This document shows positions 3,337 through 34,292 of a stretch of 64,000 nt of DNA, piece by piece. The stretch is from an uncultured Candidatus Saccharibacteria bacterium. Its GTDB lineage: Bacteria; Patescibacteriota; Minisyncoccia; Phycocordibacterales; VMEP01. The translations under genes were made by a program, and so were the position numbers. Location of the stretch: NCBI GenBank assembly GCA_964579635.1, contig CAZOFV010000002.1, positions 1,371 to 65,370 of the forward strand, in the 5' to 3' direction. Within the stretch, counting starts at the first letter, position 1. The number at the start of each line of letters is the position of its first letter. The notes under the pieces were generated by a model. That model worked only from the letters and a program-made list of their open reading frames with translations. It did not search any database and was not told the DNA's origin.

Positions 3337-3365
3337 ATTGACAACTTACCTATATTACGGTTAAA
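3337..3365 (+). promoter_or_regulatory. Candidate sigma70-like promoter TTGACA-N17-TTAAAT driving the antisense small ORF
   Basis: Exact TTGACA, a 17-nt spacer, then TTAAAT, about 45 nt upstream of the GTG start at 3411. Confidence 0.4.
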
Positions 3366-3410
3366 TCAAGGAAGTTACTTAGTCCCATCAACCAAACAAG
3401 AGGAGTTCTC

Positions 3411-3629
3411 GTGCATACATACTTTGTCTCGTTTTCTGTAGTGCGCACCGGCCAACCATCATACCCCGTCAACAGGATTCTCAAACGCAAAGCACCAATC
3501 GTTCTGAATTCGATGGCCGACAAGCTGAGGTTGGAAGACAGTCTGCTCAAAAATTTCTACCGCGGACACACGCGGTATGCCGGCGACAGGTGTGTGCTCT
3601 TTTCCATCCAGCGTCTGCCGCTCGCGTAA
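3411..3629 (+). CDS. GC-rich orphan small protein (72 aa) encoded antisense within the suf operon gap
   Basis: SD AAGAGGAG lies 5 nt before a GTG start; a strong terminator follows. The sequence is GC-rich compared with its neighbours. No recognisable domain. Confidence 0.45.
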   Translation: MHTYFVSFSVVRTGQPSYPVNRILKRKAPIVLNSMADKLRLEDSLLKNFYRGHTRYAGDRCVLFSIQRLPLA

Positions 3630-3655
3630 GGTCCGCGCCAGCAAACAGTCAAACC

Positions 3656-3685
3656 AAAAGCCTCCCTCGGGAGGCTTTTTATTTC
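3656..3685. terminator. Rho-independent terminator (best on the + strand, usable in both directions)
   Basis: GCCTCCC-tc-GGGAGGC hairpin followed by TTTTTATTT. Located between sufD and sufS. Confidence 0.6.
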
Positions 3686-3761
3686 AACGAAAGAGGAGTG
3701 CGTGGACTAGTAATATCGTACACAGCATCCGAACGACGTTAAATCAAATGGTAAATACCAT

Positions 3762-4445
3762 TTATATTTCTAAAAATCCATCTACTAAAAGTTTATAGGC
3801 GTTTCCCTCATCAAGTCCGCGCGACATTGGATAAAACAACTCATCACGAGAAATATCTTTTATGGAAAGTGAATGAGAACAACGAACATCATTACTTGCA
3901 ATATCAAGAGATGGAATTGCGTCAACGCGAGCTTCTTCAGACAAAATCAAAAATGAAGCTGATTCCTCCCCTTTTGCCTCTATGTCTTTACCCATCGCGA
4001 TATCACTTCTGTAAATTACGTGTGCCTTATCTTTAAGAACTCCACGCACGTCAATTTTTGAAATAGTGTGTGATGCCATGTGATAAACCTTGTGATATAC
4101 ATCAACCTCCGATTCACCCACTAAATCATAAGAACTGGTTATCGAAGCTTTAGCACCACGACCGGCTAAAATAATGTGAATATCATTTTTACTAACAACC
4201 TGATTCTTAGAAGATTCAACATATTCAAATGTCGCCCCTTCGCCAACATAAACAATAAGAAGTTTTGATTGAGATAAATTATTTTCTAATTTTGTTGTTT
4301 CGTTTGATGCCACTTCAATTACTTTCCCACCCTTTGCGACGATAGATAAAAACTCCTCCGAAAAAGGAGAGGCTATTTTGAGTCCGTATTTAAAAGCGTT
4401 CGGCTCAACATAAGTATTTAAAATTTCTTTAACGTTATTTTTCAT
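3762..4445 (-). CDS. sufD: Fe-S cluster assembly protein SufD (short form)
   Basis: 227 aa SufB/D-family C-terminal beta-helix region, directly downstream of sufB. Confidence 0.75.
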   Translation of the reverse strand: MKNNVKEILNTYVEPNAFKYGLKIASPFSEEFLSIVAKGGKVIEVASNETTKLENNLSQSKLLIVYVGEGATFEYVESSKNQVVSKNDIHIILAGRGAKASITSSYDLVGESEVDVYHKVYHMASHTISKIDVRGVLKDKAHVIYRSDIAMGKDIEAKGEESASFLILSEEARVDAIPSLDIASNDVRCSHSLSIKDISRDELFYPMSRGLDEGNAYKLLVDGFLEI

Positions 4446-4450
4446 ATTGC

Positions 4451-5800
4451 TTAACCAACACTTCCCTCCATCTCAAGCTCAATCAACTTATTAAGCTCAA
4501 TTGCGTATTCAAGTGGCATGGCCTTAACGATAGGCTCCAAAAAACCGCCAACAATAAGGCGTTCTGCTTCTCTCTCAGAAAAACCGCGTGAACGTAGATA
4601 AAACACCTCATCGTCCCCTAGTCGTCCAACTTTTGCTTCGTGAGAAATATTAACCCTCTTATTATCGTTCTTCGTTGATGGGTATGTATTAGAAACTGAT
4701 TTATCATCCAAAATTAATGCATCACAAACAACAGATGACACCGCGCCTGTTGCGCGCTTCCCTATTTGCACAAACCCGCGATAAGTAGAGATACCGCCAT
4801 CTTTAGAAACTGATTTAGAACGAATCGTAGAAACTGTATCCCTCGCCAAGTGTAGCGCTTTTGCACCTGTGTCTTGATTCTGCCCCTCACCGGCAAGTAC
4901 GATTCCTAAACTATCTGCTTTTGCTCTTGCTCCCAAAAGAACAGACGATGGATAAAGCATCGTCACACATGAACCCATATTGCCGTTGACCCACTGCATT
5001 TCTCCGTCTTCATATACCATCGCTTTTTTGGTGTTTAGGTTGTAGGTGTTGCGTGACCAATTCTCAATACTTAAATATTTTACTTTCGCCCCTTTCATCA
5101 CAAAAACTTCCACACAGCCAGCATGAAGCGATGACGATGTGTATCGTGGAGCAGAACATCCTTCGATGTATTCAATCTCTGAACCTTCGTCGGCGATAAT
5201 TAATGTGTGTTCAAACTGGCCAGCAGATGGGCGGTTCATTCTAAAATACGCTTGCAAAGGCAAGCCAACTTTCACCCCTTTGGGAACATAAATAAAAGTG
5301 CCACCGCTCCAAACGGCACCGTGGAGCATGGTGAACTTATGATCAGAAGATGGCACGCAGTCGGTCATAAAATATTTTTCAACAAGCTCTGGATATTTTT
5401 GCACAGCCACATCCATATTCTCAAAAATAACCCCCTTATCAGCAAGTGATTTTTGAAGATTGTGATAAACAATCCCTGAATCATATTGAGCACCAACCCC
5501 ACCTAAATATTCGCGTTCAGCTTTTGGAATTCCGAGCTTTTCAAAAGTGTCAGTTATTTCTTTAGGGAGTTCTTTCCAGTCAGTAGTTTCCTCAACAGAA
5601 GGGTCAATGTAATAAACAAGATCGTCTAAATTGAGCCCTGATAGCGATGGACCCCAATTTGGGATAAGTGTCTCTTTCCACAAAGAAAAGGCCTCTAGGC
5701 GCTTTTTTAGCATCCAAGCGGGCTCATTCTTACTCTCCGAAATATGGCGCACAAGCGCTTCAGAAAGTCCTTTATTAACCATCTTTTCATCTATTGACAT
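4451..5800 (-). CDS. sufB: Fe-S cluster assembly protein SufB
   Basis: 449 aa, characteristic SufB conservation throughout. First gene of the operon. Confidence 0.9.
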   Translation of the reverse strand: MSIDEKMVNKGLSEALVRHISESKNEPAWMLKKRLEAFSLWKETLIPNWGPSLSGLNLDDLVYYIDPSVEETTDWKELPKEITDTFEKLGIPKAEREYLGGVGAQYDSGIVYHNLQKSLADKGVIFENMDVAVQKYPELVEKYFMTDCVPSSDHKFTMLHGAVWSGGTFIYVPKGVKVGLPLQAYFRMNRPSAGQFEHTLIIADEGSEIEYIEGCSAPRYTSSSLHAGCVEVFVMKGAKVKYLSIENWSRNTYNLNTKKAMVYEDGEMQWVNGNMGSCVTMLYPSSVLLGARAKADSLGIVLAGEGQNQDTGAKALHLARDTVSTIRSKSVSKDGGISTYRGFVQIGKRATGAVSSVVCDALILDDKSVSNTYPSTKNDNKRVNISHEAKVGRLGDDEVFYLRSRGFSEREAERLIVGGFLEPIVKAMPLEYAIELNKLIELEMEGSVG

Positions 5801-5876
5801 TGCGACAAATTATATTGTATTATCACGCCAGTTGCAAATTTGATTTAACCCAAACAAAAAGAGGAGGAGAGCTGTC

Positions 5877-6119
5877 ATGAATACTGACTGTGCCAAAGAA
5901 AATGTTTTGAAGGACAACGAGGAATTCGTCGCCTTTCTTCACGAAAACGCGCGTAAAGAAAAAATTCCCGCCACCTGCGACAAGTTGTGGCTCGCCAATG
6001 TTTGGCGGAACAACAGGGGTCTTTTCGCAAACCTCTTCGTTCTGTACACAGGGAAAGCCGTTCTTGTCCCGCAAATCGACTCGTTCTTCCAGCAAGCCGC
6101 CGAGTCGTACAAGGGCTAG
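5877..6119 (+). CDS. GC-rich orphan small protein, paralog 1 (80 aa)
   Basis: SD AAGAGGAGGA before the ATG. Shares the ATCDK and C-terminal FFQQAAESYKG motifs with the downstream paralog. Followed by a hairpin terminator. Confidence 0.6.
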   Translation: MNTDCAKENVLKDNEEFVAFLHENARKEKIPATCDKLWLANVWRNNRGLFANLFVLYTGKAVLVPQIDSFFQQAAESYKG

Positions 6120-6135
6120 CCTTTCCCTTCAACAA

Positions 6136-6165
6136 AAAGTCCCGCATTGTGCGGGGCTTTTCTAA
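6136..6165 (+). terminator. Rho-independent terminator of paralog 1
   Basis: CCCGCA-ttg-TGCGGG hairpin followed by GCTTTTCT. Identical to the copy after paralog 2. Confidence 0.6.
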
Positions 6166-6243
6166 TATTAACGTTTCCAAAAAACGTGATAGTATCACTG
6201 TAGCCGTAACTTCAATCAAATAAACTTAGAAGGAAAACATCAA

Positions 6244-6489
6244 ATGAATACCGCTAGTGTTGCCCCAACAAATGTACTGGAAGACAACAAAGAATTCGTC
6301 GCCTATCTTCACGCGCACTCCAGGGGAAGAAATGTTCCCGCAACCTGCGACAAGTCGTCATTATCCGATTATTGGCAAGGCAATAGACGCTTTTTCGTGG
6401 AAACATTCACAAGCTGTACCGGCAAGGCCGTCAACATCAAGAACATTCGCGAATTCTTCCAGCAAGCCGCCGAGTCGTACAAGGGCTAG
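6244..6489 (+). CDS. GC-rich orphan small protein, paralog 2 (81 aa)
   Basis: SD AGAAGGAAAA before the ATG. About 40% identity to paralog 1, with the last 11 codons and 3' UTR identical. A candidate promoter TTAACG-N16-TAGTAT overlaps the palindrome GTGATAGTATCAC (6186-6198). Confidence 0.6.
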   Translation: MNTASVAPTNVLEDNKEFVAYLHAHSRGRNVPATCDKSSLSDYWQGNRRFFVETFTSCTGKAVNIKNIREFFQQAAESYKG

Positions 6490-6505
6490 CCTTTCCCTTC
6501 AACAA

Positions 6506-6535
6506 AAAGTCCCGCATTGTGCGGGGCTTTTCTAA
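6506..6535. terminator. Rho-independent terminator shared by paralog 2 (+) and bcp (-)
   Basis: Same CCCGCA-ttg-TGCGGG hairpin as at 6136-6165. Confidence 0.6.
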
Positions 6536-6538
6536 TTA

Positions 6539-6997
6539 TTATTTTGTTGCGTCAGCAAGTACTTCGCCAGCATGTTCTTTTGGTTTTACTTCTTCGTAAA
6601 CTTTCTTAATTTTTCCATCTTCACCTATCAAAAAAGAGACACGGTTTGTACCTTCGTATTCACGCCCCATAAATTTTTTCTTTCCCCAAACTTCATATTT
6701 ATTCACAACTTCTTTTTTCTCGTCTGAAAGTAACGGGAATGGTAAATTATACTTTTCACTAAACTTCTTGTGGCTCTTAGTCGAATCAACAGAAATACCG
6801 AAAACAACAATTCCCATTTTTTTGAAATCATCATAACTATCGCGAATAGTACAGGCCTCAGTGGTACACCCCGGAGTATCATCTTTTGGATAAAAATAAA
6901 CCAAAACCATCTTTCCTTTATGGTCCGACAATTTATGGAGATTACCTTCTCCGTCTAGAAGTTCAAAGTCCGGAGCAACTTGTCCTTGTTTTAACAT
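6539..6997 (-). CDS. bcp: Peroxiredoxin Bcp (AhpC/TSA family thiol peroxidase)
   Basis: Peroxidatic Cys motif PGCTTEAC, 152 aa thioredoxin fold. Confidence 0.85.
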   Translation of the reverse strand: MLKQGQVAPDFELLDGEGNLHKLSDHKGKMVLVYFYPKDDTPGCTTEACTIRDSYDDFKKMGIVVFGISVDSTKSHKKFSEKYNLPFPLLSDEKKEVVNKYEVWGKKKFMGREYEGTNRVSFLIGEDGKIKKVYEEVKPKEHAGEVLADATK

Positions 6998-7022
6998 CCG
7001 TTTATTTTACCACTTCTCAAAA

Positions 7023-8288: not shown

Positions 8289-8303
8289 ATTTTTTAAATT
8301 ATT

Positions 8304-10016: not shown

Positions 10017-10120
10017 AGATAATAAGTTAAAAGTTTATACAGTTTGTAAAGTTGAAAGTAACACCGTGTGTATTAACTTTATAGACTTTTTACTTTATAA
10101 ACTTTACGAACTTACGCACC

Positions 10121-13760: not shown

Positions 13761-16700
13761 TTAATTACGGCGTCTTTTTTTAAGTTCAACATCAAGGGCC
13801 AATCCACGTAGGTAATTCAACATAACCGTAAAGGAAGCTGGAGCGTTTGGCGCCTTAACATCCTCGCCCTTGATAATAGAATCGAACGTCTGTGAACGAC
13901 CGACGATATCGTCTGATTTAACTGTAAGCATTTCACGAAGTGTGTGTGATGCTCCGTATCCTTCAAGTGCCCACACTTCCATTTCACCAAAACGCTGACC
14001 TCCACCTTGAGCTTTACCTCCCAATGGCTGTTGGGTAATGAGCGAGTACGGTCCGATGGAGCGCATGTGAATCTTATCTTCCACCATGTGGTGAAGCTTC
14101 ATGATATACATGTATCCGAGTGCGATTTCCTGATCAAACGAATCACCTGTGCGACCATCATAAAGTTTAACTTTACCAGTCTCTGAAAAACCAGCTTTCT
14201 TAAGTTCGTCACGAATTTCCTGGTCTGTTGCACCTTGGAAAGGAGGAACTATTGCCTGATAATTTAGTGTGTTTGCTGCAAGACCCATGTGAAGTTCCAA
14301 AATCTGACCTAGGTTCATACGAGAAGGAACTCCAAGTGGTGTCAAAATAACATCAATAGGTGTGCCGTCTTCCATGTATGGCATATCCTGCTCTGGCAAG
14401 ATAAGAGAAATAACACCTTTGTTTCCGTGGCGACCTGCTAGTTTATCTCCAACAGAGATGTTTCTAAGCTGTGCGACTTCAATGTGAATTCTTTTAATGA
14501 TTCCACTATCAAGTGAATCACCACTATCACGAGAGAAAACCTTTACACCAACAATACGTCCACGCTTGCCGTGTTCCATACGAAGTGAAGTGTCTTTAAC
14601 ATCACGTGCTTTTTCACCGAAGATAGAACGCAAAAGTCTTTCTTCTGGAGTAAGTTCTGATTCACCTTTTGGAGTAATCTTTCCAACCAAAATATCGTTA
14701 GGGCGAACTTCTGCACCAATACGGATAATTCCATCAATATCAAGATCTTTCAATTTTGCTTCACCAACGTTTGGAATATCACAAGTTGTGACCTCGGGCC
14801 CAAGCTTTGTATCACGAACATTCACAACGAACTCTTCAATGTGGATACTTGTGAACTTGCTGTCTTTGACCAATCTTTCTGAAAGGATAATAGCGTCTTC
14901 GTAGTTCGAACCGTCCCAAACCATAAAGCCAACCAAGACGTTTTGACCTAGTGCTACTTGTCCATGATCAGACGATGATGTGTCAGCCAATATTTCACCC
15001 TTCTTAACACGCTGTCCAACTGAGACTACTGGACGCTGATGGAAAACGCTAAAGTCGTTTGTTCTTGAGTAGTTAACTAAAGTATATTCTTTTTCTTTTC
15101 CAGATTTTGTTCCATCTACTTTAACCTTCTTTGCATCAACATAAGTAACAGTTCCCTCTTCTTCTGCAAGAACTAAACGACCTGTGTAATAAGCAACGGA
15201 GTGTTCCATACCTGTAGCAACAAGTGGAGCTTCTGGGATAATACAAGGTGTTGCCTGCTTCTGCATGTTAGAACCCATGAGTGCACGACCGGCGTCATCG
15301 TGTTCCAAGAAAGGAATAAGTGAAGTTGCAACAGAGAAAGGTTGTGTTGTTGAAACGTCGATATAATCAACGTCGTTTTTATCAACCATACCAGGTTCTG
15401 TTTTAATACGAGCTTCTACTTTCTTTTCTGTAATGTTCCCGTCAGCGTCATAATGAATACCAGCATGAGCAATAACACTTCCTTCTTCTTCAAGAGCGTT
15501 TAGGTAAACAATTTCTTTTGTAATCTTTCCGTTCTTAACCTTAACGTAAGGAGTTTCAATAATGCCGAAATTATTAATTCGAGCGTGTGTCGACAACTGC
15601 AAAATAAGACCGATGTTTTGGCCTTCTGGTGTATGGATAGGACAAACACGACCGTAGTGGGAAGTGTGCACGTCACGAACTTCAAGACCAGCTCTTTCAC
15701 GAGTAAGACCTCCTGGCCCAAGTGCTGAAAGTCTTCGTAAGTGTTCTATTTCATCCAAAACGTTACCCTGACTCATGAATTGAGAAAGTTGGTTTGTGGT
15801 GAAGAATTCTTTTATACGAGCTTGCAGTGGACGTTGATTAACTATCTGAATTGGAAGAGTTGTCTCGGCATCAATAGTAGACATTCTGTCTTGGATATTT
15901 CTCTTCATTTGAGCCATACCAACACGAATCTTTGCTTGAAGCATTTCTCCAACATATCGAACACGTCTTAATCCTAAGTGATCAATATCGTCAGCTTCAG
16001 ATCCTGGAGTGTTATTTAAGTTAGTGATGTGTTCAACAATAAGAACAACATCTTCAAGTGAAAGTGTGCGACGAGCAAGCGCAACTTCTTTCATGTCCAA
16101 ATCAAATCTCTGGTTAAAACGAAAACGTCCAACAGGAGAAAGATCATATCTCTCTTCGCTAAAAATTGACGAGATAAATTCACGAGCATTATCTGCTGTT
16201 GCAAGATCGCCATCACGAAGACGTTTATAAATTTCTATGTATGAATCATCAAGGGTTTTAGCTGGGTCCTTCTCAAGAAGAGCTGTAACCATTTCCTGCA
16301 TTTCTTTACTAAACTTATTTATGATCTCTTTGTCGCTCTTTGTTCCAAAAACACGTAGTAATGATGCAACTGGGAACTTCCTCTTTCTGTCGATACGAAC
16401 AAAGATACCTTCAGCATCAGATTCTATTTCAATCCAAACACCACGTGATGGGATTATTTTTGCACCAAAAAAACGCTTGCCTTTAATATCTTGGTCGTTA
16501 AAGAAAACGCCGAAGCTTCTAGCAAGCTGAGGAACAATAACACGCTCGACACCGTTAATGATGAAGGTGCCGTGAGAAGTCATAAGAGGAAAATCTGCCA
16601 TGAAGATTTCCTGCTCTTTAACAGTGTTAAAAGTCTTGTTCTTTAGTTTGATTGTTGCACGAAGAGGAGCTTCGTAAGAAAGCTTATTTGCCTTAGCAAA

Positions 16701-16979
16701 ATATTCATTATGTTTTGGCTCACTTAAGAAAAAAGAAGTGAACTCAAGATCAAACTTTTTATCAGAATAATCTTTTATTGGAGAGAATTCCTTAAATATT
16801 TCTTTTAGACCTTTTTCTAAAAGCCATTTATACGATGCGACCTGATTTTCAATCAAGTCTGGCATTTCAGCCAATGGTTTTTTCCATGCGGAAAAATGTT
16901 TCTGCTCACGACCGGCACCACTCAATCTTCCCGAAGACCTAGGAAGAATTGCATCCTGGACACGCAATTGTTTTGCCAT
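13761..16979 (-). CDS. rpoB: DNA-directed RNA polymerase beta subunit
   Basis: 1072 aa with conserved beta-subunit blocks. Immediately upstream of rpoC. Confidence 0.95.
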   Translation of the reverse strand: MAKQLRVQDAILPRSSGRLSGAGREQKHFSAWKKPLAEMPDLIENQVASYKWLLEKGLKEIFKEFSPIKDYSDKKFDLEFTSFFLSEPKHNEYFAKANKLSYEAPLRATIKLKNKTFNTVKEQEIFMADFPLMTSHGTFIINGVERVIVPQLARSFGVFFNDQDIKGKRFFGAKIIPSRGVWIEIESDAEGIFVRIDRKRKFPVASLLRVFGTKSDKEIINKFSKEMQEMVTALLEKDPAKTLDDSYIEIYKRLRDGDLATADNAREFISSIFSEERYDLSPVGRFRFNQRFDLDMKEVALARRTLSLEDVVLIVEHITNLNNTPGSEADDIDHLGLRRVRYVGEMLQAKIRVGMAQMKRNIQDRMSTIDAETTLPIQIVNQRPLQARIKEFFTTNQLSQFMSQGNVLDEIEHLRRLSALGPGGLTRERAGLEVRDVHTSHYGRVCPIHTPEGQNIGLILQLSTHARINNFGIIETPYVKVKNGKITKEIVYLNALEEEGSVIAHAGIHYDADGNITEKKVEARIKTEPGMVDKNDVDYIDVSTTQPFSVATSLIPFLEHDDAGRALMGSNMQKQATPCIIPEAPLVATGMEHSVAYYTGRLVLAEEEGTVTYVDAKKVKVDGTKSGKEKEYTLVNYSRTNDFSVFHQRPVVSVGQRVKKGEILADTSSSDHGQVALGQNVLVGFMVWDGSNYEDAIILSERLVKDSKFTSIHIEEFVVNVRDTKLGPEVTTCDIPNVGEAKLKDLDIDGIIRIGAEVRPNDILVGKITPKGESELTPEERLLRSIFGEKARDVKDTSLRMEHGKRGRIVGVKVFSRDSGDSLDSGIIKRIHIEVAQLRNISVGDKLAGRHGNKGVISLILPEQDMPYMEDGTPIDVILTPLGVPSRMNLGQILELHMGLAANTLNYQAIVPPFQGATDQEIRDELKKAGFSETGKVKLYDGRTGDSFDQEIALGYMYIMKLHHMVEDKIHMRSIGPYSLITQQPLGGKAQGGGQRFGEMEVWALEGYGASHTLREMLTVKSDDIVGRSQTFDSIIKGEDVKAPNAPASFTVMLNYLRGLALDVELKKRRRN

Positions 16980-17886: not shown

Positions 17887-17910
17887 ATGCTTGTTCTATC
17901 ACGATAACAT

Positions 17911-17945
17911 AAAAGAAAAAAGCCCCGCGTTCGCAGGACTTTTGT
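17911..17945 (-). terminator. Rho-independent terminator downstream of the GC-rich orphan at 17953-18180
   Basis: On the minus strand, a CCTGCG-aa-CGCGGG hairpin followed by TTTTTTCTTTT. Confidence 0.5.
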
Positions 17946-17952
17946 CGCATGA

Positions 17953-18180
17953 CTAGTCATCTGGGGAGACAACACATCCATGGGCCGAATGCCTGCCCAG
18001 TGGGTGCTTCTCTACCAATTCGCCGAGGGTTTCGAAATAATCTTTTGACACTTGCGAATTTTCCGTCCTCTTTGCAAGAGGCTTGATTTCTCCATCTTCC
18101 TCGATACTTCTAAGCGGATCATCATGCTTGCGCCCCGGGGTTGCTTCGTAAATATCGGCCATCAAGGTCATTCGCGCCAT
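17953..18180 (-). CDS. GC-rich orphan small protein (75 aa) sitting where rimM usually lies
   Basis: SD AAAAGGAGAAAA before the ATG (18180). GC-rich. Flanked by hairpin terminators. No recognisable domain. Confidence 0.5.
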   Translation of the reverse strand: MARMTLMADIYEATPGRKHDDPLRSIEEDGEIKPLAKRTENSQVSKDYFETLGELVEKHPLGRHSAHGCVVSPDD

Positions 18181-18225
18181 CACGTTTTCTCCTTTTCGTT
18201 GATCTAAACTATTAACATCATAAAC

Positions 18226-18257
18226 AAAAACCGCCCTATATCAAGGGCGTTTTTTGT
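18226..18257. terminator. Bidirectional terminator after the KH-domain gene
   Basis: AAAAACCGCCCT-atatcaa-GGGCGTTTTTTG. Confidence 0.6.
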
Positions 18258-18275
18258 TTCTTCCTAATCTCCTAA

Positions 18276-18707: not shown

Positions 18708-18752
18708 ACAATAAAAAAGACCCTGCATCTCTGTATAAGCAGATGCAGGGTC
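18708..18752 (-). terminator. Rho-independent terminator of the 190-aa GC-rich orphan
   Basis: GACCCTGCATCT...AGATGCAGGGTC hairpin with a T-run on the minus strand. Confidence 0.55.
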
Positions 18753-18792
18753 CGTCTCCTGCCTGAAATTCTAAACTCTCAAGACCCGAGTG

Positions 18793-19365
18793 CTAATTTG
18801 CGCGCAACGCAGCAGGATCATTGTCGTCCCAGAAGTCGAGACCGAGCCAGTCGCTGAACCAGTACCACCTGCTGCCACTCCGGCCGAGGTAACGAACGTA
18901 CAGACTATCACCGGGGTGGCGGTAGATCGTGCCCCAGAAGAACACATACTTGCCTTTCCATTCCTCGGGAATGAGGTGCGGATGAGCGAGCAGGTAGTCA
19001 AGGATATTCGCGTTTAAGACAGGCTTGCTGACGAGTTCCTTACGGAGCTTGTTGCCTTCCATCATTTTGCCGTTCTGCTGTCCTTCGGCAAGAAAAAGTT
19101 CGATCTGTGAGGCATCAAACTTGAACTGTCCGCCCTTCTGATGCTCTTCGACTTTCCAGCCATCAGGAACGAAAGGGGCAGCATCGCAGTCGATGGTGTG
19201 TTCTACCTGCGTGATAGTGGCGTAGCCGAGCCGCACTTGTCGCACCCTGGCGAGATTACCCCCAGTTGCAAGCCAGTCGAGATCGGCGACATCGGGAATG
19301 CCGTTGCGAAGAAGAGCTTGTTTGATTTTGTAGGCAAGTCCAACATCGAGTGTGATATCACTCAT
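18793..19365 (-). CDS. GC-rich orphan protein (190 aa from the ATG at 19365; the ORF track starts at an upstream TTG)
   Basis: SD AAAGGAG lies 6 nt before the ATG. About 55% GC. W-rich C-terminus (SRWYWFSDWLGLDFWDD). Inserted between rpsP and the KH gene. No recognisable domain. Confidence 0.55.
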   Translation of the reverse strand: MSDITLDVGLAYKIKQALLRNGIPDVADLDWLATGGNLARVRQVRLGYATITQVEHTIDCDAAPFVPDGWKVEEHQKGGQFKFDASQIELFLAEGQQNGKMMEGNKLRKELVSKPVLNANILDYLLAHPHLIPEEWKGKYVFFWGTIYRHPGDSLYVRYLGRSGSRWYWFSDWLGLDFWDDNDPAALRAN

Positions 19366-19430
19366 TAGAGTCTCCTTTGCGACATCGAGTCTGTGAGTAG
19401 ACAAATAGTCGCTTTAATGCCAGCGGGCTT

Positions 19431-19500
19431 TCTTCGGTGCGAAGGTTTGCCATAGCAGAGAATGGCCTAGTGGTTAAAGCCGCTTTCTGCTATGGCAAAC
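19431..19500 (-). promoter_or_regulatory. Structured 5' leader or operator of the 190-aa orphan
   Basis: A perfect 15-bp inverted repeat, GTTTGCCATAGCAGA (19445-19459) and TCTGCTATGGCAAAC (19486-19500), separated by 26 nt. An adjacent CTTCG-gtg-CGAAG hairpin lies 70-135 nt upstream of the start. Confidence 0.4.
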
Positions 19501-19577
19501 ATAAGCTAAGAATCAAAGAACTATATTGGTATAAAAACATGTGTTTGTAATAAAGTCAAACATACATAATATTAAAA

Positions 19578-20108: not shown

Positions 20109-20165
20109 GCAGGCAATACTAATAGAAATGGCCCGATAGGTCAAGCTTATTTTTTTAGCTTTTGT

Positions 20166-20241
20166 CTTTAAAAACGCGCATAAAACTTTGCTAAGTTTTT
20201 GCTATGCTCGTGCCGTCGCACTGCGCAATGTTTTTAAAAAC
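20166..20241. promoter_or_regulatory. Conserved structured element, copy 1 (upstream of rpsP)
   Basis: Outer inverted repeat CTTTAAAAAC/GTTTTTAAAAAC, core AAAACTTTGCTAAGTTTTT, inner hairpin GTGC-cgtc-GCAC, then TGCGCAA. Sits just upstream of a predicted rpsP promoter TTGACC-N17-TAGTAT. Confidence 0.45.
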
Positions 20242-22339: not shown

Positions 22340-22401
22340 ATTTGCCTAAAATAATTAAGTTGAGTTATATTAAAATCTGTTGTTTTTAGGAGAAAGCTAG
22401 C

Positions 22402-22626
22402 ATGGATGTTATCGCACCTTCAGGAGATGGATTTTGCCCAGCGTGTCACGGGGATGCCATTTATTTCAAACAACTCGACGAAGAAAGGATGGGTAAAGAT
22501 ATTCAGATAACCCGTCTTTATCACTGTGTTTGTGGTTATAAAGCGAAAGTTGTAATCAATGGCCGAAACATACTCTCTTGCAAGAACCCATCTCCGCAAG
22601 AAATAGAGTCTCTGCACGCTTCGTAA
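22402..22626 (+). CDS. GC-rich orphan zinc-ribbon protein (74 aa)
   Basis: SD TAGGAGAAAG before the ATG. CPAC...CVCG cysteine pairs. Shares a terminator with the convergent orphan. Confidence 0.5.
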   Translation: MDVIAPSGDGFCPACHGDAIYFKQLDEERMGKDIQITRLYHCVCGYKAKVVINGRNILSCKNPSPQEIESLHAS

Positions 22627-22639
22627 AAAAGCACCAAAC

Positions 22640-22670
22640 AAAAACCCGCCAGTTGGCGGGTTTTATTATT
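22640..22670. terminator. Bidirectional terminator shared by the convergent Zn-ribbon orphans
   Basis: AAAACCCGCCA-gt-TGGCGGGTTTT. Confidence 0.65.
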
Positions 22671-22684
22671 TATGCCACGAATGG

Positions 22685-22975
22685 CTAAATTGTGAACGGA
22701 GTATTCATCATTTCTATGAATTCTTTTTCTCCGACCTTAGGAACATCATCTCCCGCATGAAGATACTGCCTGCCACACTTACGACAAGCCGCAGTGCGAT
22801 AAAGGAATGCCCCGTTAAACCAGCCGGAAACTTCGCGCACAACATCCCCACCGCAATTTTCCGCCTTGCACTTATTGCCAAGGAAGGGAGTATTTTCTTC
22901 CCGGAATACCTTCCTGGCCTTAAAAAACCTGGCCAAGTTTTCCTCAGACAGCTCAGGAAAATTTCTATTGCCCAT
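22685..22975 (-). CDS. GC-rich orphan zinc-ribbon protein (96 aa)
   Basis: SD GGAGGG before the ATG. CKAENC...CRKC cysteine pairs. GC-rich. Confidence 0.5.
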   Translation of the reverse strand: MGNRNFPELSEENLARFFKARKVFREENTPFLGNKCKAENCGGDVVREVSGWFNGAFLYRTAACRKCGRQYLHAGDDVPKVGEKEFIEMMNTPFTI

Positions 22976-23058
22976 GATTAGTCCCTCCAGTTATCAAACC
23001 AAACCTGTCTTTAAGATATATACGCTAAACAATCAAGTCAACCTTATCTAAATGATTA

Positions 23059-25347: not shown

Positions 25348-25382
25348 GATATTTGATACGAAGTATAGCCTATTTAAAACTT

Positions 25383-25416
25383 AAAAAAAATGGGCCCCGC
25401 GTGATGCGGGGCCCTT
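25383..25416 (-). terminator. Rho-independent terminator of the 220-aa orphan
   Basis: GGGCCCCGC-gtgat-GCGGGGCCC hairpin followed by a T-run on the minus strand. Confidence 0.6.
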
Positions 25417-25434
25417 CAAGGCGAAAACAAACTA

Positions 25435-26094
25435 CTAAAACTTGGGGATACGCTCCCCGACGACAATTGCACCATCGAGCGGTTCCGGCGTCGGGAAATG
25501 ATGAACGTTCTTCATTCCCTTCGGTATGAACGGGTCGCGCCCTTGAACGACGCGCCATTCATGAGTCGGGAAACGTCCGACTTCGGTCTCGCGCGGGAGA
25601 ATGAACAGGTCTAGGTAGAGATATTTCCTGCCATCTTCGCAACGCTTCATCCAGACTTGCGCATTGCAAACCACCTTTTCTCCGGCAAACGGTCCCGGAT
25701 TATGGGGGTGGTAAACGTGAATGTTCATCACGCCGCCTTTCACTGGGCGGAAAAAGCGAAGATAGTCATTACCCCCGTTCACCCCGGCCTTGTACTCCGC
25801 CATGTCCGGAATCTTCACCGAAAACAGCGCCTTTGCGTCAGACCACAACAGCTCGCGAGAAGCGACGCCATCGGACGAAACAACCTTCTTCGGCATTGGT
25901 GCCGGCGCGGGTGCCACTACCGCTTTGGCTTGGTCGGCCTTTTGCGCCACCTTGCCGTTTCCCTTCTTGGCTTTTTCTGCCCTTTCGTTTTTTGCCTTTT
26001 TGACCTCCTCGATCTTCTGGGCTCTTGCCTTCGAAGCCACTTTCGGAAAAAACATCCCGAGCTGTTCGGCCATGCCAACGTGCTGTCCACTCAT
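25435..26094 (-). CDS. GC-rich orphan protein (220 aa) with a Lys/Ala-rich N-terminal region and an unknown C-terminal domain
   Basis: SD CTAAGGAGGAAAACC before the ATG (26094). The ORF track starts earlier at a TTG. No recognisable domain. Confidence 0.5.
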   Translation of the reverse strand: MSGQHVGMAEQLGMFFPKVASKARAQKIEEVKKAKNERAEKAKKGNGKVAQKADQAKAVVAPAPAPMPKKVVSSDGVASRELLWSDAKALFSVKIPDMAEYKAGVNGGNDYLRFFRPVKGGVMNIHVYHPHNPGPFAGEKVVCNAQVWMKRCEDGRKYLYLDLFILPRETEVGRFPTHEWRVVQGRDPFIPKGMKNVHHFPTPEPLDGAIVVGERIPKF

Positions 26095-26187
26095 GGTTTT
26101 CCTCCTTAGGAAAAATGTTTGAAAATACAACGATCAATAATGCTCTTAAGATTAAAGCATTTTTATGCTAATTTGTCAAACAAAAAA

Positions 26188-27886: not shown

Positions 27887-27913
27887 ACCGTAATGGTACG
27901 AGATGAGAAAACG

Positions 27914-28138: not shown

Positions 28139-28195
28139 AACTTGCGTAGTATTACAAAAAGAGACAAAAAAGTAAAGGTTTCATTTTTAAACACA

Positions 28196-28277
28196 CACCA
28201 CTAAAATACACGCGTAAAATTCTGCTGAATTTTCGCTCTGCTCGATTCGTCAATCTGCGCAAGGTATTTTAGTGGTG
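28196..28277. promoter_or_regulatory. Conserved structured element, copy 2 (upstream of rpmF)
   Basis: Outer inverted repeat CACCACTAAAATAC/GTATTTTAGTGGTG, core AAAATTCTGCTGAATTTT, inner hairpin GATT-cgtc-AATC, then TGCGCAA. Confidence 0.45.
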
Positions 28278-28311
28278 TATGCGGGGTACGGAATACGTAA
28301 AATTTATCTAA

Positions 28312-28947
28312 TTAAGAAGAAAAACCTGTATTTTTAAGGAAACTCCGGCGGTGGATTTTGGTGATGCCATGTTTTTTAATCGCCAAGTAATGTGCCTTAG
28401 TGCCATATCCTTTATGTCTTTCAAAACCATATTGTGGAAACTTCTTGGCAAATCGCACCATTAATCGGTCGCGGGTTACCTTTGCAACAACTGAGGCAAT
28501 AGAAATAATCTGCACCAAATCATCTCCGTGGATTATTGTTTTTTGGTTTTTATATTCTTTAGGCGCTTTCAATCCCCCATCAAGAAATATCTGCGCATAC
28601 TCTGGTTTAACCTTAAGATTTGAAAGAGATTTATCAAGCGCGCTTTGTATAGAAAAAACTATTCCCTTTTTATCGATAATTGTTGGTGTGGTAAAAGAAA
28701 CAGAAAATTTTATATCGCCACACATTTGCGCCAATTTTATTTTCTTAAACCACTCTTCTCTTTTTTTCTCTGAAAGTTTCTTTGAATCTCGTATTCCTTT
28801 GAATTCTTTTTTTAGCCGAGAATTATATACAGCCGAATTTATGGCCACGGCGCCGACAGCCACCGGCCCTGCCAACGGCCCTCGCCCTACTTCATCGATA
28901 CCGACAATAAATTTTTGTTTTTTAGCCACACAATTCTTCATATCCAC
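28312..28947 (-). CDS. rnhB: Ribonuclease HII
   Basis: GIDEVGRGPLAGPVV motif, 211 aa. Confidence 0.9.
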   Translation of the reverse strand: MDMKNCVAKKQKFIVGIDEVGRGPLAGPVAVGAVAINSAVYNSRLKKEFKGIRDSKKLSEKKREEWFKKIKLAQMCGDIKFSVSFTTPTIIDKKGIVFSIQSALDKSLSNLKVKPEYAQIFLDGGLKAPKEYKNQKTIIHGDDLVQIISIASVVAKVTRDRLMVRFAKKFPQYGFERHKGYGTKAHYLAIKKHGITKIHRRSFLKNTGFSS

Positions 28948-28980
28948 ATAATATCAGAGTATTATCTTGCCTCTGCTATA

Positions 28981-31900: not shown

Positions 31901-32187
31901 ACATGACAGTATCAAAACTTAAAGCAACATACAAAGAAGGAATGCTTGCTGTTGTTGCCGGTATCATTGAAGAATCAAAAGAAGTTATAACCAAAACAAA
32001 CGACCGTATGGCATTCTTAAAAATATCCGACTTTACCGGCACAATGGAAGCTGTTGTCTTCCCCAAACTATACAAAGATGTGAAAGATTTATGCGTACCT
32101 GATAAATGTGTTGTTGCTCGCGGTCGCATATCAAAAAGAAACGACGAAACAAGTTTGATTATCGAAGAAATAAAAGAGCTGAAGTAA
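28981..32187 (+). CDS. dnaE: DNA polymerase III alpha subunit
   Basis: PHP domain (HLHTHSHYS), polymerase core and OB fold. The start is uncertain (ATG at 28981 or 28999; the track gives 28915). Confidence 0.9.
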   Translation: MGKLNDMEKNFVHLHTHSHYSLLDGLSKVDAMVKRAQELKMPALALTDHGNMYGAIEFYKLCKTHGIKPIIGVEAYIAERTRFDKEPNIDSKRYHLTLLAKNEKGYKNLLKLVSRANLEGYYYKPRMDKELLREHSEGIICLSGCFGGELSRALSAHNDEKARTIIAEYQDIFGKENYFLEIMAHVKMDGAKEVRDKIVALGRELNIPLVATHDSHYLDEDDHKAHDTLLAVQTGSDTTDANRLTFGDDNFSLIDAKKAYELFKDIPDAVENTVRIAEMCDIEIELGKWVFPDIKLPERSSNYDEELKNITYEGLIRRELERTPEVEGRIEYELKIIKDKGYAPYFLVVADLLRFAAENKIFTNIRGSVAGSIVTYLTGITKVNPLEYKLPFERFLNPERPSAPDIDMDFADNRRDEMIEYVKQKYGADKVAQIGTFGTMMARGAVRDVARALGYPYATGDRLSKLIPMGSQGFPMTIENALKITPELKAIYKNEKDAKEIIDLAKKLEGCVRHVSVHAAGVVISPTPLTDFTPLQFDPKGGKIITQYDMYVVEDVGLLKFDFLGIRNLSILGRAVDLVKKLYDEDVDIERIPLDDKLTFELLARGETEGLFQLNGDGMTRYLKELKPTTIHDINAMVALYRPGPMVSIPDYIARKRNPALIKYPDPRLKDILKESYGVIAYQDDVLLTAITLAGYSWLEADKLRKAMGKKIPKEMAAQEEKFISGCVDKGLKPEKALEIWKLIEPFAAYGFNKAHAASYGRVSYQTAYMKAHYPAPYMAAILSAESGDIDKVAEIITECKHMNISVLPPDVNESFGDFTVVKNENGVEEIRFGLISTKNLGIDIAEAIITERKLNGKYVSFADFLTRVKHKNLNKKSLEALIKSGSMDKLGERGQFLANMEEALEFAHAASHMDSAQTSLFGGMASEPEATINLKEAEPAKKSDMLAWEKELLGLYISGHPLDQWKEKLNGRDMTVSKLKATYKEGMLAVVAGIIEESKEVITKTNDRMAFLKISDFTGTMEAVVFPKLYKDVKDLCVPDKCVVARGRISKRNDETSLIIEEIKELK

Positions 32188-32225
32188 CATTTGGTAAAAT
32201 CAATAAAATTGCTATTATTGCCTTT

Positions 32226-33965
32226 ATGACAGAAGAAAAACTACAAAACCTAAGACACTCCCTCGCCCACCTCTTGGCGGCAGCTGTTAAAGAGATTTAC
32301 CCTGACGCACTACCGGCAATCGGGCCAGCTATCGAAAATGGTTTCTATTATGACTTTGAATTTAAAACTCCAATTAGCGACACAGACCTTCCAAAGATTG
32401 AGAAGGAAATGCGTAAGATTTTAAAAGGGTGGGAAGAGTTTGAAGGACACGAAGTCAGTGAATCCGAAGCTACTGAGGTTTTTTCAGGGAACCCATACAA
32501 ACTTGAGTTAATTAACGAGATTAATCAACGCAGCGAAAAACTAACCATATATGCATCGGGGAATTTTACCGACCTATGTCGTGGCGGTCATGTTGATGAT
32601 GCAAAAAAAATAAACGAGGACGCTTTCGCTCTCACCCACACTGCTGGCGCTTACTGGCGTGGAAATGAAAAAAACAAAATGTTGACTCGTATCTACGGTC
32701 TCGCATTTACCACAAAAGAAGAACTCGACTCATATATCGTGATGCAAGAAGAAGCCAAAAAGCGCGATCATCGTAAGCTCGGCAAAGAACTTGAGCTCTT
32801 CACTTTAATAGACGAAGTTGGTGCTGGGCTTCCCCTCTTTTACCCTAAAGGTGCAATTCTACGTCGTTTAATTGAAGGATATATAACAGAAGAACAAGAA
32901 AAACGTGGATATCTACCAATATGGATTCCACACATCACAAAAGGGAAACTTTATGAAATATCCGGGCACTTGGATAAATATGATGCGATGTACAGCCCAA
33001 TGAAAGTTGATGAAATTGATTACTATCTAAAGCCAATGAATTGTCCGCACTTCATGATGCTTTATAAATCTCTTCCTCACTCATATCGCGAACTACCTCT
33101 TCGTTACACCTCAACCACAACAAACTATCGCTATGAAAAATCTGGTGAGCTTTCAGGCCTTACCCGCGTTCGCTCGTTAACACAAGATGATTGCCATGTA
33201 TTCTGCGAAAGCGATCAAATTGAAACGGAAATAAGCACCATGGCTGAAATGATTGGTGAGACATATAAAGCTTTTGGATTCAAAGATTTTTGGGTACGCA
33301 TCTCTCTTCGAGATTCTAAAAATAAAGAAAAATATCTTGGTGATGATGCGGTTTGGGAAAAGGCCGAAAATGCCTTGCGCTCAGTTATCGGAAACACAGG
33401 CTGGAATTATAAAGAAGCTGAAGACGAAGCCGCTTTTTACGGACCAAAACTAGACTTTATGTTTAAAGATGTTTTAGGACGTGAGTGGCAACTTTCAACA
33501 ATTCAACTAGACTTCAATCTCCCTAAAAAATTTGACCTTGAATACACCGACAAAGAAGGTAAAAAATCTCAACCTGTTGTTATTCATCGTGCAATTTTAG
33601 GTTCAACAGAACGCTTTATGGGAATCTTAATTGAACATTATGGCGGAGCATTTCCTCTTTGGCTCTCACCTGTACAAGTTGTCGTAATTCCTATTGGTGA
33701 AAAACAAGAAGAGTATGCGCAAAATATTAACCGTTTACTTAAAGAAGCTGGCATAAGAACAGAGATTGATTCAACAAACGAAACTCTTGGAAAAAAGATA
33801 CGCAATGCTAAAACAAGCAAAACTCCTTACTTCCTTGTTATTGGTGACAAAGAAATGGAAAACAACACAGCAACACTAGAAAGCCGTGACGCCGGACAAA
33901 TTGGTGCATTTTCGGCTGAGGAAATACTTAAAAAGTTACAGGAGGAAATTAAGGAGAAAAAATAA
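32226..33965 (+). CDS. thrS: Threonyl-tRNA synthetase
   Basis: Class II aaRS motifs plus the ThrRS editing/TGS region. Start chosen at MTEEKLQNL; the track ORF begins 40 codons earlier. Confidence 0.88.
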   Translation: MTEEKLQNLRHSLAHLLAAAVKEIYPDALPAIGPAIENGFYYDFEFKTPISDTDLPKIEKEMRKILKGWEEFEGHEVSESEATEVFSGNPYKLELINEINQRSEKLTIYASGNFTDLCRGGHVDDAKKINEDAFALTHTAGAYWRGNEKNKMLTRIYGLAFTTKEELDSYIVMQEEAKKRDHRKLGKELELFTLIDEVGAGLPLFYPKGAILRRLIEGYITEEQEKRGYLPIWIPHITKGKLYEISGHLDKYDAMYSPMKVDEIDYYLKPMNCPHFMMLYKSLPHSYRELPLRYTSTTTNYRYEKSGELSGLTRVRSLTQDDCHVFCESDQIETEISTMAEMIGETYKAFGFKDFWVRISLRDSKNKEKYLGDDAVWEKAENALRSVIGNTGWNYKEAEDEAAFYGPKLDFMFKDVLGREWQLSTIQLDFNLPKKFDLEYTDKEGKKSQPVVIHRAILGSTERFMGILIEHYGGAFPLWLSPVQVVVIPIGEKQEEYAQNINRLLKEAGIRTEIDSTNETLGKKIRNAKTSKTPYFLVIGDKEMENNTATLESRDAGQIGAFSAEEILKKLQEEIKEKK

Positions 33966-34032
33966 TCCTTCGCTAGACCCTGTTATTAAAGTGTGTTAGC
34001 TTTACTCTCAGTTAATCAAAAGGGGGTGCAAA

Positions 34033-34239
34033 ATGACTGTTCCTAAGAGAATCTTTGAAGACACGTGGGTGAAGGGAAATTTCCTGATCCCGGCAGACAA
34101 GAGCGTTCGGACTGAACTGCGACAACAGCTCGAAAACTACTCGCGCGCCGGCGTCATGTTCGTACCAGGAAACGAGGAGGTGCGATCAATCCTGAAAGCG
34201 CGTATTGCCGCAATTGATGCCTACGATACCGTGAGATAA
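34033..34239 (+). CDS. GC-rich orphan small protein (68 aa)
   Basis: SD AAAGGGGGTG before the ATG. GC-rich. A hairpin terminator follows. Confidence 0.5.
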   Translation: MTVPKRIFEDTWVKGNFLIPADKSVRTELRQQLENYSRAGVMFVPGNEEVRSILKARIAAIDAYDTVR

Positions 34240-34256
34240 GAAATACTCACACCCAA

Positions 34257-34292
34257 ACAAAAAAACAGCCGAAACTTATCGGCTGTTTTTAA
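34257..34292. terminator. Bidirectional terminator between the orphan and gyrB
   Basis: AAACAGCCGA-aactta-TCGGCTGTTTTT. Confidence 0.6.

Follow-up and report, generated by a model that had tools for sequence, protein, structure and literature searches.

Shine-Dalgarno-led, GC-rich accessory genes between the essential genes of an uncultivated Paceibacteria genome, with a homolog of diversity-generating retroelement variable proteins behind a structured leader

Results

Nine GC-rich open reading frames lie in gaps between essential genes

The 64-kb stretch of contig CAZOFV010000002.1 analyzed here (the window, whose positions serve as coordinates throughout) contains nine small open reading frames (ORFs), C1-C9, which an earlier note on this DNA had singled out as GC-rich cassettes with their own Shine-Dalgarno (SD) sequences and terminators. 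All nine were located where that note had placed them and on the expected strands (Table 1). The surrounding genes run approximately in the order sufC, nifU, sufS, SufD-like, sufB, ahpC, rpoD, dnaG, rpoC, rpoB, trmD, KH-domain gene, rpsP, rnr, smc, rnc, nusB/NUDIX, rpmF, rnhB, dnaE, thrS and gyrB, their identities being taken from Pfam marks on syntenic relatives. GC-rich intergenic gaps are confined to 3.3-34.3 kb, with none at 36-64 kb, and the window as a whole has a GC content of 39.1%. Because the best matches of its rpoB (13761-16979, minus strand), at no more than 74% identity, come from metagenome-assembled genomes of Nomurabacteria, Paceibacterota and Parcubacteria, the host is, judged by this gene, an uncultivated member of the Paceibacteria (Parcubacteria, Candidate Phyla Radiation (CPR)).

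Comparisons were made with congeneric contigs that are, from nearest to farthest, L083/L089 (Parcubacteria LiPW_30 and a near-identical contig, with core proteins 95-99.5% identical to those of the window), L183/L186 (one JGI contig, 92-100%) and L181 (81-94%); a further congener, L185, is the source of a same-slot C5 ortholog. The exact C5 protein is also present on Logan contigs of SRR13723393 and SRR13723397, with neighbors identical in kind. Assembly chimerism was considered and is excluded, because the rpsP-C5-KH-C4-trmD arrangement is seen again on independent Logan assemblies from other runs and because the arrangements also recur in congeneric genomes.

Table 1. Positions and parts of the nine cassettes, and of the leader and variable-region equivalent of C5
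Feature	Span	Strand	Flanking genes	Promoter or promoter-like sequence	SD	ORF and product	Terminator	Other
C1 cassette	3338-3680	+	sufS, SufD-like gene	TTGACA-17-TTAAAT, 3338-3366	GAGGAG, 3400-3405	3411-3629, GTG start, 72 aa	3656-3680	
C2 cassette	5832-6161	+	sufB, ahpC/rpoD		GAGGAGGA, 5861-5868	5877-6119, 80 aa	6135-6161	
C3 cassette	6229-6531	+			GAAGGAA (weak), 6229-6235	6244-6489, 81 aa	6505-6531	
C4 cassette	17916-18194	-	KH-domain gene, trmD		AAGGAGA, 18188-18194	17953-18180, 75 aa	17916-17943	
C5 cassette	18713-19559	-	rpsP, KH gene	19528-19559	19371-19377	18793-19365, 190 aa	18713-18756	leader 19379-19499
C6 cassette	22388-22664	+			AGGAGA, 22388-22393	22402-22626, 74 aa, CxxC Zn-ribbon-like	22641-22664, bidirectional, shared with C7	convergent with C7
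C7 cassette	22641-23041	-	rnr, smc	23013-23041	GGAGGGA, 22982-22988	22685-22975, 96 aa, Zn-ribbon	22641-22664, shared with C6	convergent with C6
C8 cassette	25383-26179	-	rnc, smc	TTGACA-17-TTTAAT, 26151-26179	AAGGAGGA, 26100-26107	25435-26094, 219 aa	25383-25414	
C9 cassette	34020-34290	+	thrS, gyrB		AAGGGGG (SD-like), 34020-34026	34033-34239, 68 aa	34261-34290	
C5 leader RNA	19379-19499	-						P1 long hairpin 19446-19499; P2 small hairpin and GCCCGCUGGCA 19418-19445; P3 hairpin abutting the SD 19379-19412
Variable-region equivalent of C5	18798-18925	-						3' end of ORF, last ~42 codons

The GC excess sits in the ORFs and extends to every codon class

The cassette ORFs have GC contents of 43-55%, so that the 50-55% estimated by eye in the earlier note captures a real enrichment (at least 49% in seven of nine) while being too high for C6 (43%) and C7 (46%). 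Computed within the window, GC at third codon positions (GC3) is 0.37-0.65 in the cassettes versus 0.20-0.39 in native ORFs of at least 120 aa, again with mild enrichment only in C6 (0.37) and C7 (0.49). The excess resides in the ORFs: non-coding DNA in the cassette gaps has 36.6% GC, versus 32.9% for intergenic DNA elsewhere. It shifts every degenerate codon class: C makes up 0.54 versus 0.33 of NNY codons, G 0.51 versus 0.31 of NNR codons, and C and G together 0.60 versus 0.25 at four-fold degenerate positions. CTG accounts for 13 of 62 leucine codons in the cassettes and for 24 of 1,549 in native genes.

Two causes of the high GC3 were tried and rejected. Translational selection is unlikely, since the rise in G and C extends to codons that native genes seldom use and is unlike the pattern of rpsP, rpmF and the KH gene; selected mRNA structure does not fit either, since structure in the cassette ORFs shows no excess over synonymous-codon shuffles (z from -0.8 to +1.4).

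The native gene rpmF (L32; 27914-28138) is itself GC-rich (52%, GC3 0.24 above the local median) and has no SD; its mRNA is more stable than synonymous shuffles (z = -2.5), and the same GC3 excess is found for rpmF in L026. One stretch of L083 aligns to the window both upstream of rpsP (20143-20235) and upstream of rpmF (28192-28284), with 95% identity over 93 nt to the rpmF-side copy, which suggests a promoter or leader element shared by ribosomal-protein genes.

Cassettes carry SD sequences whereas native starts do not

An AGGAG/GGAGG-like motif precedes every cassette ORF and ends 5-8 nt ahead of the start codon in all nine, the poorest consensus matches being those of C3 and C9. With an assumed anti-SD, CACCUCCUUU, the mean duplex energy is -9.7 kcal/mol for the nine cassettes versus -1.2 kcal/mol for 48 native genes, and a GGAG/GAGG/AGGA core motif occurs in 8/9 cassettes versus 3/48 native genes; the contrast drawn in the earlier note, between an SD before each cassette and none at the native starts that it inspected, thus holds up and is statistically strong. 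The SDs of C1, C4, C7, C8 and C9 are kept in orthologs while the adjacent bases of the untranslated region (UTR) vary, which gives indirect support for SD-dependent initiation.

The remaining signals are distributed as that note had described. A GC-rich hairpin followed by a T-run lies 3' of every cassette, one bidirectional hairpin being common to C6 and C7; native genes likewise carry terminators, so the terminator alone is not distinctive. C1, C5, C7 and C8 each have a TTGAC(A/T) box spaced 17 nt from a -10 box, at a distance of 17-50 nt or more ahead of the start. At native genes the spacing differs: a TANNNT box ends 5-10 nt before the start codon in 18 of 51 genes, versus 10.6% of random positions and none of the nine cassettes. 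This arrangement fits leaderless mRNAs, and many core genes look leaderless on that basis.

The association of SD and GC3 reaches beyond the window. Across 80 other rpoB-anchored Paceibacteria loci, in a survey that relied on crude longest-ORF gene calls, a strong SD precedes ~6% of ordinary ORFs versus 19-31% of GC3-excess ORFs (GC3 exceeding the local median by more than 0.15), and further examples of the same signature were found in other lineages. The suggestion that the nine represent a distinct gene class with its own initiation mode is therefore supported by SD energy, by motif counts, by the leaderless-type spacing of native genes and by the 80-locus trend. SD-poor or leaderless initiation has been described for Bacteroidota and for the leaderless-rich Actinobacteria and Deinococcus. 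The host resembles these lineages in that its core genes lack an SD and have an AU-rich upstream region or a -10 box abutting the start, and differs from them in that a minority class keeps strong, conserved SDs and consists of GC-rich, fast-evolving accessory genes. No account of SD or leaderless initiation in Patescibacteria turned up in our literature searches.

The ORFs are coding genes, most of them at fixed junctions

Codon-level divergence identifies the ORFs as real coding genes. The dN/dS ratio is 0.13-0.17 for C8, 0.21-0.30 for C7, 0.30 for C6, 0.23-0.40 for C9 and ~0.27 for C4, and the frame of C1 is conserved; the neighbors smc, rnc and rnr have ratios of 0.02-0.05, and cassette proteins diverge several times faster than their neighbors. 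Spurious ORFs, non-coding GC-rich RNAs and assembly chimeras are therefore scarcely credible as an account of the locus and largely refuted, given also that frames are conserved, that the ORFs lack excess RNA structure and that the same arrangements appear in independent assemblies. GC-rich islands in AT-rich genomes are often structured RNAs, and the exact protein of C1, like the exact sequence of C3, is not on record as a called product in the public protein collection; but Rfam, searched at the gathering threshold on the window, gave no match for the cassettes, and together with four homologous loci searched at E <= 0.1 returned only tRNA and one chance miRNA match.

No Pfam, PHROG or PADLOC family scored above threshold for any of the nine proteins, in line with the earlier note, which had recognized no domain. 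Its term orphan was too broad. C5 has more than 1,300 homologs and C7 belongs to a small Zn-ribbon family of 95 representative clusters (motif TPLPGNxC..C.G.VV...C..CGR.Y; no Pfam match in 30 relatives); C8, with 13 homologs, and C2/C3, with 3 among 5.8 billion proteins, are truly genus-restricted. The C8 protein is predicted to combine a disordered Lys/Ala/Glu-rich N-terminus with a beta domain of weak OB-fold resemblance.

The flanking essential genes keep the same order in four congeners, and same-slot orthologs exist in congeners for C1, C2/C3, C4, C6, C7, C8 and C9. C1, C2/C3, C4, C7, C8 and C9 occupy the same slots in every congener examined for them, C5 and C6 being polymorphic. Syntenic orthologs in increasingly distant congeners are 94%, 91% and 66% identical for C7, and 87%, 79% and 65% identical in three congeners for C8; for C9 the values are 76% (L183) and 63% (L181). 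C7, C8 and C9 reach the most distant congener, where core dS is ~1.2-2. The C1 ortholog in L186 has the same frame, an ATG start, about half of its residues identical (by eye) and a conserved promoter and SD. An SD together with raised GC is retained in the orthologs of C4, C7, C8 and C9, and the C1 and C2/C3 copies retain the SD. Because these same-slot orthologs keep the SD and, where computed, the raised GC, the cassettes do not, on comparison of these genomes, look like recent inserts, and most appear to have been inherited at fixed junctions within the genus; the horizontal acquisition that the earlier note had allowed for is thus not supported in the sense of a recent insertion. That note had counted syntenic orthologs of similar composition as evidence against its own reading. 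They do exist within the genus, but the composition they conserve is the anomalous one, so that the anomaly is both real and heritable.

A possible foreign origin with slow amelioration

An older foreign origin has to be weighed separately. On this account the cassettes were single acquisitions from GC-richer donors (CPR phages, plasmids or other bacteria), brought their SDs and terminators along and have been slowly ameliorating since. The codon shift in all degenerate classes toward codons rare in native genes speaks for it, as do the patchy presence of some cassettes and the genus restriction of C8 and C2/C3. Polarized third-position changes in C8 point the same way, with 22 GC to AT and 9 AT to GC, at per-site rates like those of native genes; these are small numbers polarized against a saturated outgroup and suggestive only. 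The GC3 of C8, however, is nearly constant between the window and its congeners (0.64, 0.61, 0.61 and 0.60) although dS to the most distant is 1.24, and syntenic orthologs extend to core dS ~1.2-2. The non-coding parts of the gaps are AT-rich, C8, C7 and C2 found no relatives in scans of IMG/VR, and no PHROG matched. With conserved essential flanks, the cassettes do not show a prophage or mobile-element location, and no integrase gene is present among the identified window genes, the remaining window ORFs not having been scanned for one. We consider a foreign origin with slow amelioration unlikely, an assessment that also takes in the C5 family described below.

Two kinds of known mobile unit invite comparison. 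Like phage morons, the cassettes are autonomous single-gene units of deviant composition, with their own promoter and terminator, that leave their neighbors undisrupted; but their neighbors are essential genes (suf, rpoB/C, rpsP, trmD, smc, rnc, dnaE, thrS and gyrB) rather than a prophage, and their synteny is genus-wide. The possibility raised in the earlier note, that they are phage-derived moron, anti-defence or toxin genes, finds no support in the PHROG and PADLOC results or in these essential chromosomal flanks. Like integron cassettes, C1-C9 are small, mostly promoter-proximal single-ORF units that vary between strains; unlike them, they are dispersed over 31 kb and carry their own promoter and terminator, and the identified genes include no integrase.

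Slots are emptied, filled and duplicated

Within the fixed framework of essential genes the contents of individual slots turn over. C5 occupies the rpsP-KH slot in the window and in L185; L083 has an unrelated 199-aa ORF there, and in L183 the slot is empty. The dnaE-rnhB slot, which is empty in the window, is taken by a C5 paralog in L083 and by a distant relative in L183. C6 has a 90% identical ortholog in L083/L089 and is absent from L183, where the flanking genes are 77 nt apart. The C4 slot is filled in all congeners examined (L083/L089, L183 and L185) by occupants with lengths of 106 or 64 aa and an identity to C4 of 30-52%, beside a trmD that is 99.5-100% identical in the same congeners. 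This slot (17887-18275) places a small hypervariable ORF where the canonical operon, which we take to be rpsP-KH-rimM-trmD, has rimM; no rimM was seen in the window or its congeners.

C2 and C3 are tandem paralogs with 56% amino acid identity, and over their final 83 nt they match perfectly (100% identity). Where the window has two copies, L186 has three in tandem, with conserved N- and C-termini and terminators, near-identical ends and a variable middle. No adenine bias of the kind left by diversity-generating retroelements (DGRs) is present between C2 and C3. At the same junctions, ahpC (peroxiredoxin; 6539-6997) separates C3 from rpoD in the window but is missing from that junction in L186 (8246-8304), and L186 carries an M15 peptidase gene between sufB and sufD; native-composition genes therefore also come and go at these junctions.

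Such turnover would fit a recombination hot spot, in which GC-biased gene conversion (gBGC) in often exchanged cassettes, together with repeated cDNA replacement in DGR targets, keeps the ORFs GC-rich. Besides the slot swaps between conserved flanks and the identical or near-identical ends of the C2/C3 copies, the dS of C6 and C7 is consistent with it, at 0.09-0.16 versus 0.46-0.75 in flanking genes (3-5 times lower; 0.16 versus 0.46 for C6), as is the fact that both G and C are raised at synonymous sites. C8, on the other hand, has an ordinary dS and no AT to GC excess among its polarized changes, and no GC-richness is seen in the UTRs that lie between the conserved flanks. How strong gBGC is in bacteria is, moreover, a matter of debate. 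We regard this explanation as distinctly improbable.

The tandem arrays of small, diversified C2/C3 paralogs with conserved ends also resemble immunity-gene arrays, and with the fast evolution and variable presence of the cassettes and the occurrence of a C5-like domain in phages (see below) they could hint at parts of a single toxin/immunity, anti-defence or defence system scattered over the chromosome, as the earlier note had proposed. Against this, the nine show no sequence similarity to one another beyond the C2/C3 paralogy and match no defence or toxin family, the leader described below is shared only by C5-type genes, their distributions lie far apart (more than 1,300 homologs versus 3), and no partner toxin genes lie nearby, the cassettes being single genes apart from the C2/C3 paralogs and the convergent C6/C7 pair. 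One dispersed system is very hard to reconcile with these observations.

C5 is a homolog of DGR variable proteins

A feature that the earlier note had missed is that C5, judged by its relatives, belongs to the variable-protein family of Patescibacteria DGRs, as a homolog detached from its retroelement. In 19 of 35 C5-family loci the last ~123 nt of the gene, the variable region (VR), are repeated 300-400 nt downstream with 81-91% identity, and in the 16 loci measured 248 of 261 mismatches between VR and this template repeat (TR) fall on TR adenines, typically in AAC codons. Downstream ORFs in these relatives match RVT_1 (E 1e-24 to 1e-26) and bAvd PF22296 (E 3e-10), the bAvd gene on the opposite strand and the RVT_1 reverse transcriptase (RT) both lying downstream of the target; 25 fetched loci have such an RT.

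The window copy stands apart from these complete loci. A blastn search with word size 7 found no template copy of 18798-18925 in the window, and TR, Avd and RT are absent from the window and from ~100 kb of congeneric sequence, so that C5 may no longer be an active target but a relic. Its 3' end has nevertheless diverged like a VR: against the same-slot ortholog of L185, in an alignment counted by eye, ~8% of positions differ over the first ~440 nt versus ~40% over the last ~110 nt. The L185 protein (P0019) and the L083 paralog show the same VR residues (by eye), as expected if one template serves several targets. From these alignments it appears that DGR-type diversification has acted in this genus, and the source of diversification for C5 is probably a remote template outside the window.

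DGR clade 2 is restricted to Patescibacteria, and its targets lack recognizable domains, according to Roux et al. (2021; PMC8144416). The C5 family agrees with clade 2 targets in its C-terminal VR, downstream TR, adenine-specific mismatches and, in relatives, adjacent bAvd and RVT_1 genes, as well as in lacking a transmembrane or other recognizable domain (reported for CPR targets). The predicted fold of C5 resembles a C-type lectin, although a Foldseek search of the model against the PDB gave no significant match. Three features differ from clade 2: the window copy lies without TR, Avd or RT within 64 kb, the family has a structured 5' leader without an Rfam match, and GC-richness and an SD mark the target but not its own RT and Avd. 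Neither a structured 5' leader nor a GC-rich, SD-led target was found described in the DGR text that was searched.

The last of these differences bears on the origin of the composition. In 80 metagenome loci the C5-family gene has on average 10 GC points more than its flanks, and about three-quarters of the copies have a strong SD; the excess surpasses 5 points in 53 of 64 loci, across a range of host GC from ~28% to 56%, and neighbors vary from locus to locus without a fixed position. Six DGR loci have a target whose GC content greatly exceeds the background, next to an RT that is at or below background and lacks an SD (target/RT/background 0.556/0.262/0.35 in L168, 0.570/0.347/0.426 in L119 and 0.455/0.314/0.359 in L170). 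Because the RT beside the GC-rich target behaves in this way, the GC/SD signature is, as far as these loci indicate, a property of the gene and not of an island. Both observations count against a foreign origin, since only the target is GC-rich while RT and Avd beside it are host-like, and since the enrichment tracks the host rather than a fixed donor. On the other side, the C5 core domain, without the N-terminal domain, leader or SD, is found on four IMG/VR contigs, one of which (54% GC) encodes RecT-, DnaC-, GroES- and GroEL-like products (translations judged by eye). GC3 in the C5 family climbs from 5' to 3' toward the VR (0.58, 0.71, 0.71 and 0.78), a gradient that fits the hot-spot explanation.

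The sequence downstream of C5-family genes is also organized. Some 100-250 nt past the stops in L097-L176 (for example L113 ~6690-6760) the target terminator is followed by a promoter-like TTGCTAAAAT and a conserved RNA-like start that reads GGTAGTAGGTGAATACGCGGGCG.TTACGG..CCGCTACCGAATCC. This element, for which Rfam gave no match at E <= 0.1, lies ahead of the template repeat and probably forms the 5' portion of the DGR template RNA. Between stop and terminator, C5-family 3' UTRs contain runs of CTTTG/CTTGG/CTTAG (L168 6558-6650; more weakly, window 18757-18792). The L168 3' UTR has six tandem GAGCTCTTT units. The same word (GTTCTTTGA) starts the 5' leader of the family, and it may be bound by an RNA-binding protein or serve in DGR homing as a homing element.

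A covarying leader precedes C5-family genes

Between promoter and SD, C5-family genes in more than 25 loci share a leader with a common anatomy. A consensus promoter is followed by ~150 nt in which a conserved 5' word, AGUUCUUUGA, the long hairpin P1, whose internal-loop bases are conserved, and a small hairpin come before a conserved GCCCGCUGGCA and a last hairpin directly next to the SD; P2 and P3 were recognized by eye only. In P1, 97% of cells are paired, compensatory changes occur in 16 of 20 pairs and 0 of 500 shuffles were as good, whereas slid controls reached at most 50% pairing. A first regular-expression search was too strict and missed the window copy, a second worked, and both were replaced by a covariance model, R1, which gives the window copy a score of 86.6 bits and detects ~70 copies that precede C5-family genes on the same strand. 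The fold of the window leader has z = -5.65, and its minimum free energy structure suggests alternative pairings. No Rfam family matched at gathering score in the window, and none at E <= 0.1 in four homologous loci. As a conserved covarying structure in a 5' UTR, the element is a candidate cis-regulatory RNA, and we infer that it regulates translation or transcription.

Among the nine cassettes R1 matches only C5-type genes, but the leader is not tied to one coding sequence. In the rpsP-KH slot of L083 the promoter, leader and 3' UTR/terminator are as in the window C5 and drive the unrelated 199-aa ORF, and a variant leader stands ahead of the dnaE-rnhB C5 paralog. R1 also matches upstream of two other ORFs (L037 and L043), the L037 ORF having a VR-like C-terminus and a translated template-like copy ~300 nt downstream. 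The leader thus accompanies at least three unrelated ORF families, two of them with a VR-like C-terminus, and leader and 3' UTR appear to behave as a conserved expression socket for the exchange of ORFs. Compared with riboswitches and other cis-regulatory leaders, the C5 leader is alike in its ~150 nt between consensus promoter and SD, its covarying long hairpin and its terminal hairpin at the SD; it differs in having no Rfam match and in fronting at least three unrelated ORF families. Our literature searches found no description of a leader of DGR targets, nor of the regulation of DGR variable proteins in uncultivated bacteria.

A second upstream element was seen at rpmE (L31; 53817-54047, minus strand), which lies in a seemingly empty gap. 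Upstream of it (54091-54166) is a ~75-nt element that contains a GC-rich hairpin (GGAGCGCGATGAGCGCGAG...). L083 has a copy with 91% identity ahead of its KH gene (14570-14644), and the element might be a small mobile element or a leader shared by the two genes.

Outside the cassette region, 62746-63517 contains a gene (62771-63457, minus strand) for an IS200-like/Y1 transposase with a weak PF01797 match, possibly a repetitive extragenic palindrome (REP)-associated tyrosine transposase. A perfect palindrome of 23 nt, ACTTGGAGGTT(S)AACCTCCAAGT, flanks the gene, and two more copies of it lie in frame inside the transposase ORF and encode QLGG(S/L)TSKL.

Discussion

The reading that we favor, with moderate confidence, is that the nine ORFs are lineage-specific, fast-evolving accessory genes organized as autonomous SD-led units, and that they are neither one system nor fresh inserts. 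Each cassette would consist of a sigma-70-type promoter, an SD-bearing leader, a small ORF and an intrinsic terminator, set in a gap between essential genes. Core genes would initiate without an SD, often with a -10 box 6-9 nt before the start codon as expected of leaderless transcripts, such that two initiation modes would coexist and the SD mode would mark accessory genes. The cassette proteins would evolve several-fold faster than their neighbors under relaxed purifying selection, and their slots would occasionally lose, gain, duplicate or exchange their contents, with homologous recombination through the conserved flanks as the probable route. In C5, the last ~40 codons would correspond to the region that is rewritten in relatives from the TR by adenine-specific mutagenic reverse transcription, and the mRNA would open with the conserved structured leader ending in a hairpin at the SD. 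As a working idea, we infer that GC-rich ORFs are unable to use the unstructured AU-rich or leaderless route and hence need an SD, which would be why SD and GC-richness travel together.

Several points weigh against this reading. The codon usage of the cassettes looks foreign, including codons rare in native genes (CTG and CGG), and the net GC to AT flux in C8 suggests slow amelioration of once-foreign sequence rather than a maintained state, whereas C6 is barely enriched in GC at all. The dichotomy between SD-led and SD-less genes is not universal, as the Paceibacteria contig L188 has SDs on ordinary genes too, and the 80-locus trend depends on the crude gene calls mentioned above. No rRNA is present in the window (Rfam) or in any fetched locus, and the organism's own 16S anti-SD was not seen. 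For C5, the missing TR, Avd and RT may point to a relic.

A bolder version would join these elements into a two-tier regime, in which an SD-independent, leaderless core is set beside a GC-rich, SD-led regulon, and in which the C5 leader is a new riboswitch or factor-binding RNA that gates DGR proteins and serves as a recombination socket. We hold this to be quite unlikely as a whole.

The most concrete new items are C5 as a homolog of DGR variable proteins that appears detached from its retroelement, the covarying leader, the socket that leader and 3' UTR seem to form, and an SD/GC signature that singles out the DGR target from the genes beside it. CPR bacteria account for much of bacterial diversity, and very little is known of their gene regulation and host interaction. 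If the signature proves reliable, it would offer a way to pick candidate host- or phage-interaction genes from sequence and would point to a second, separately tunable channel of translation initiation. The leader RNA is a concrete, testable candidate for a new regulatory element tied to DGR variable proteins, and the occurrence of the same leader and 3' UTR with different ORFs in sister species suggests a simple route by which DGR targets may be exchanged.

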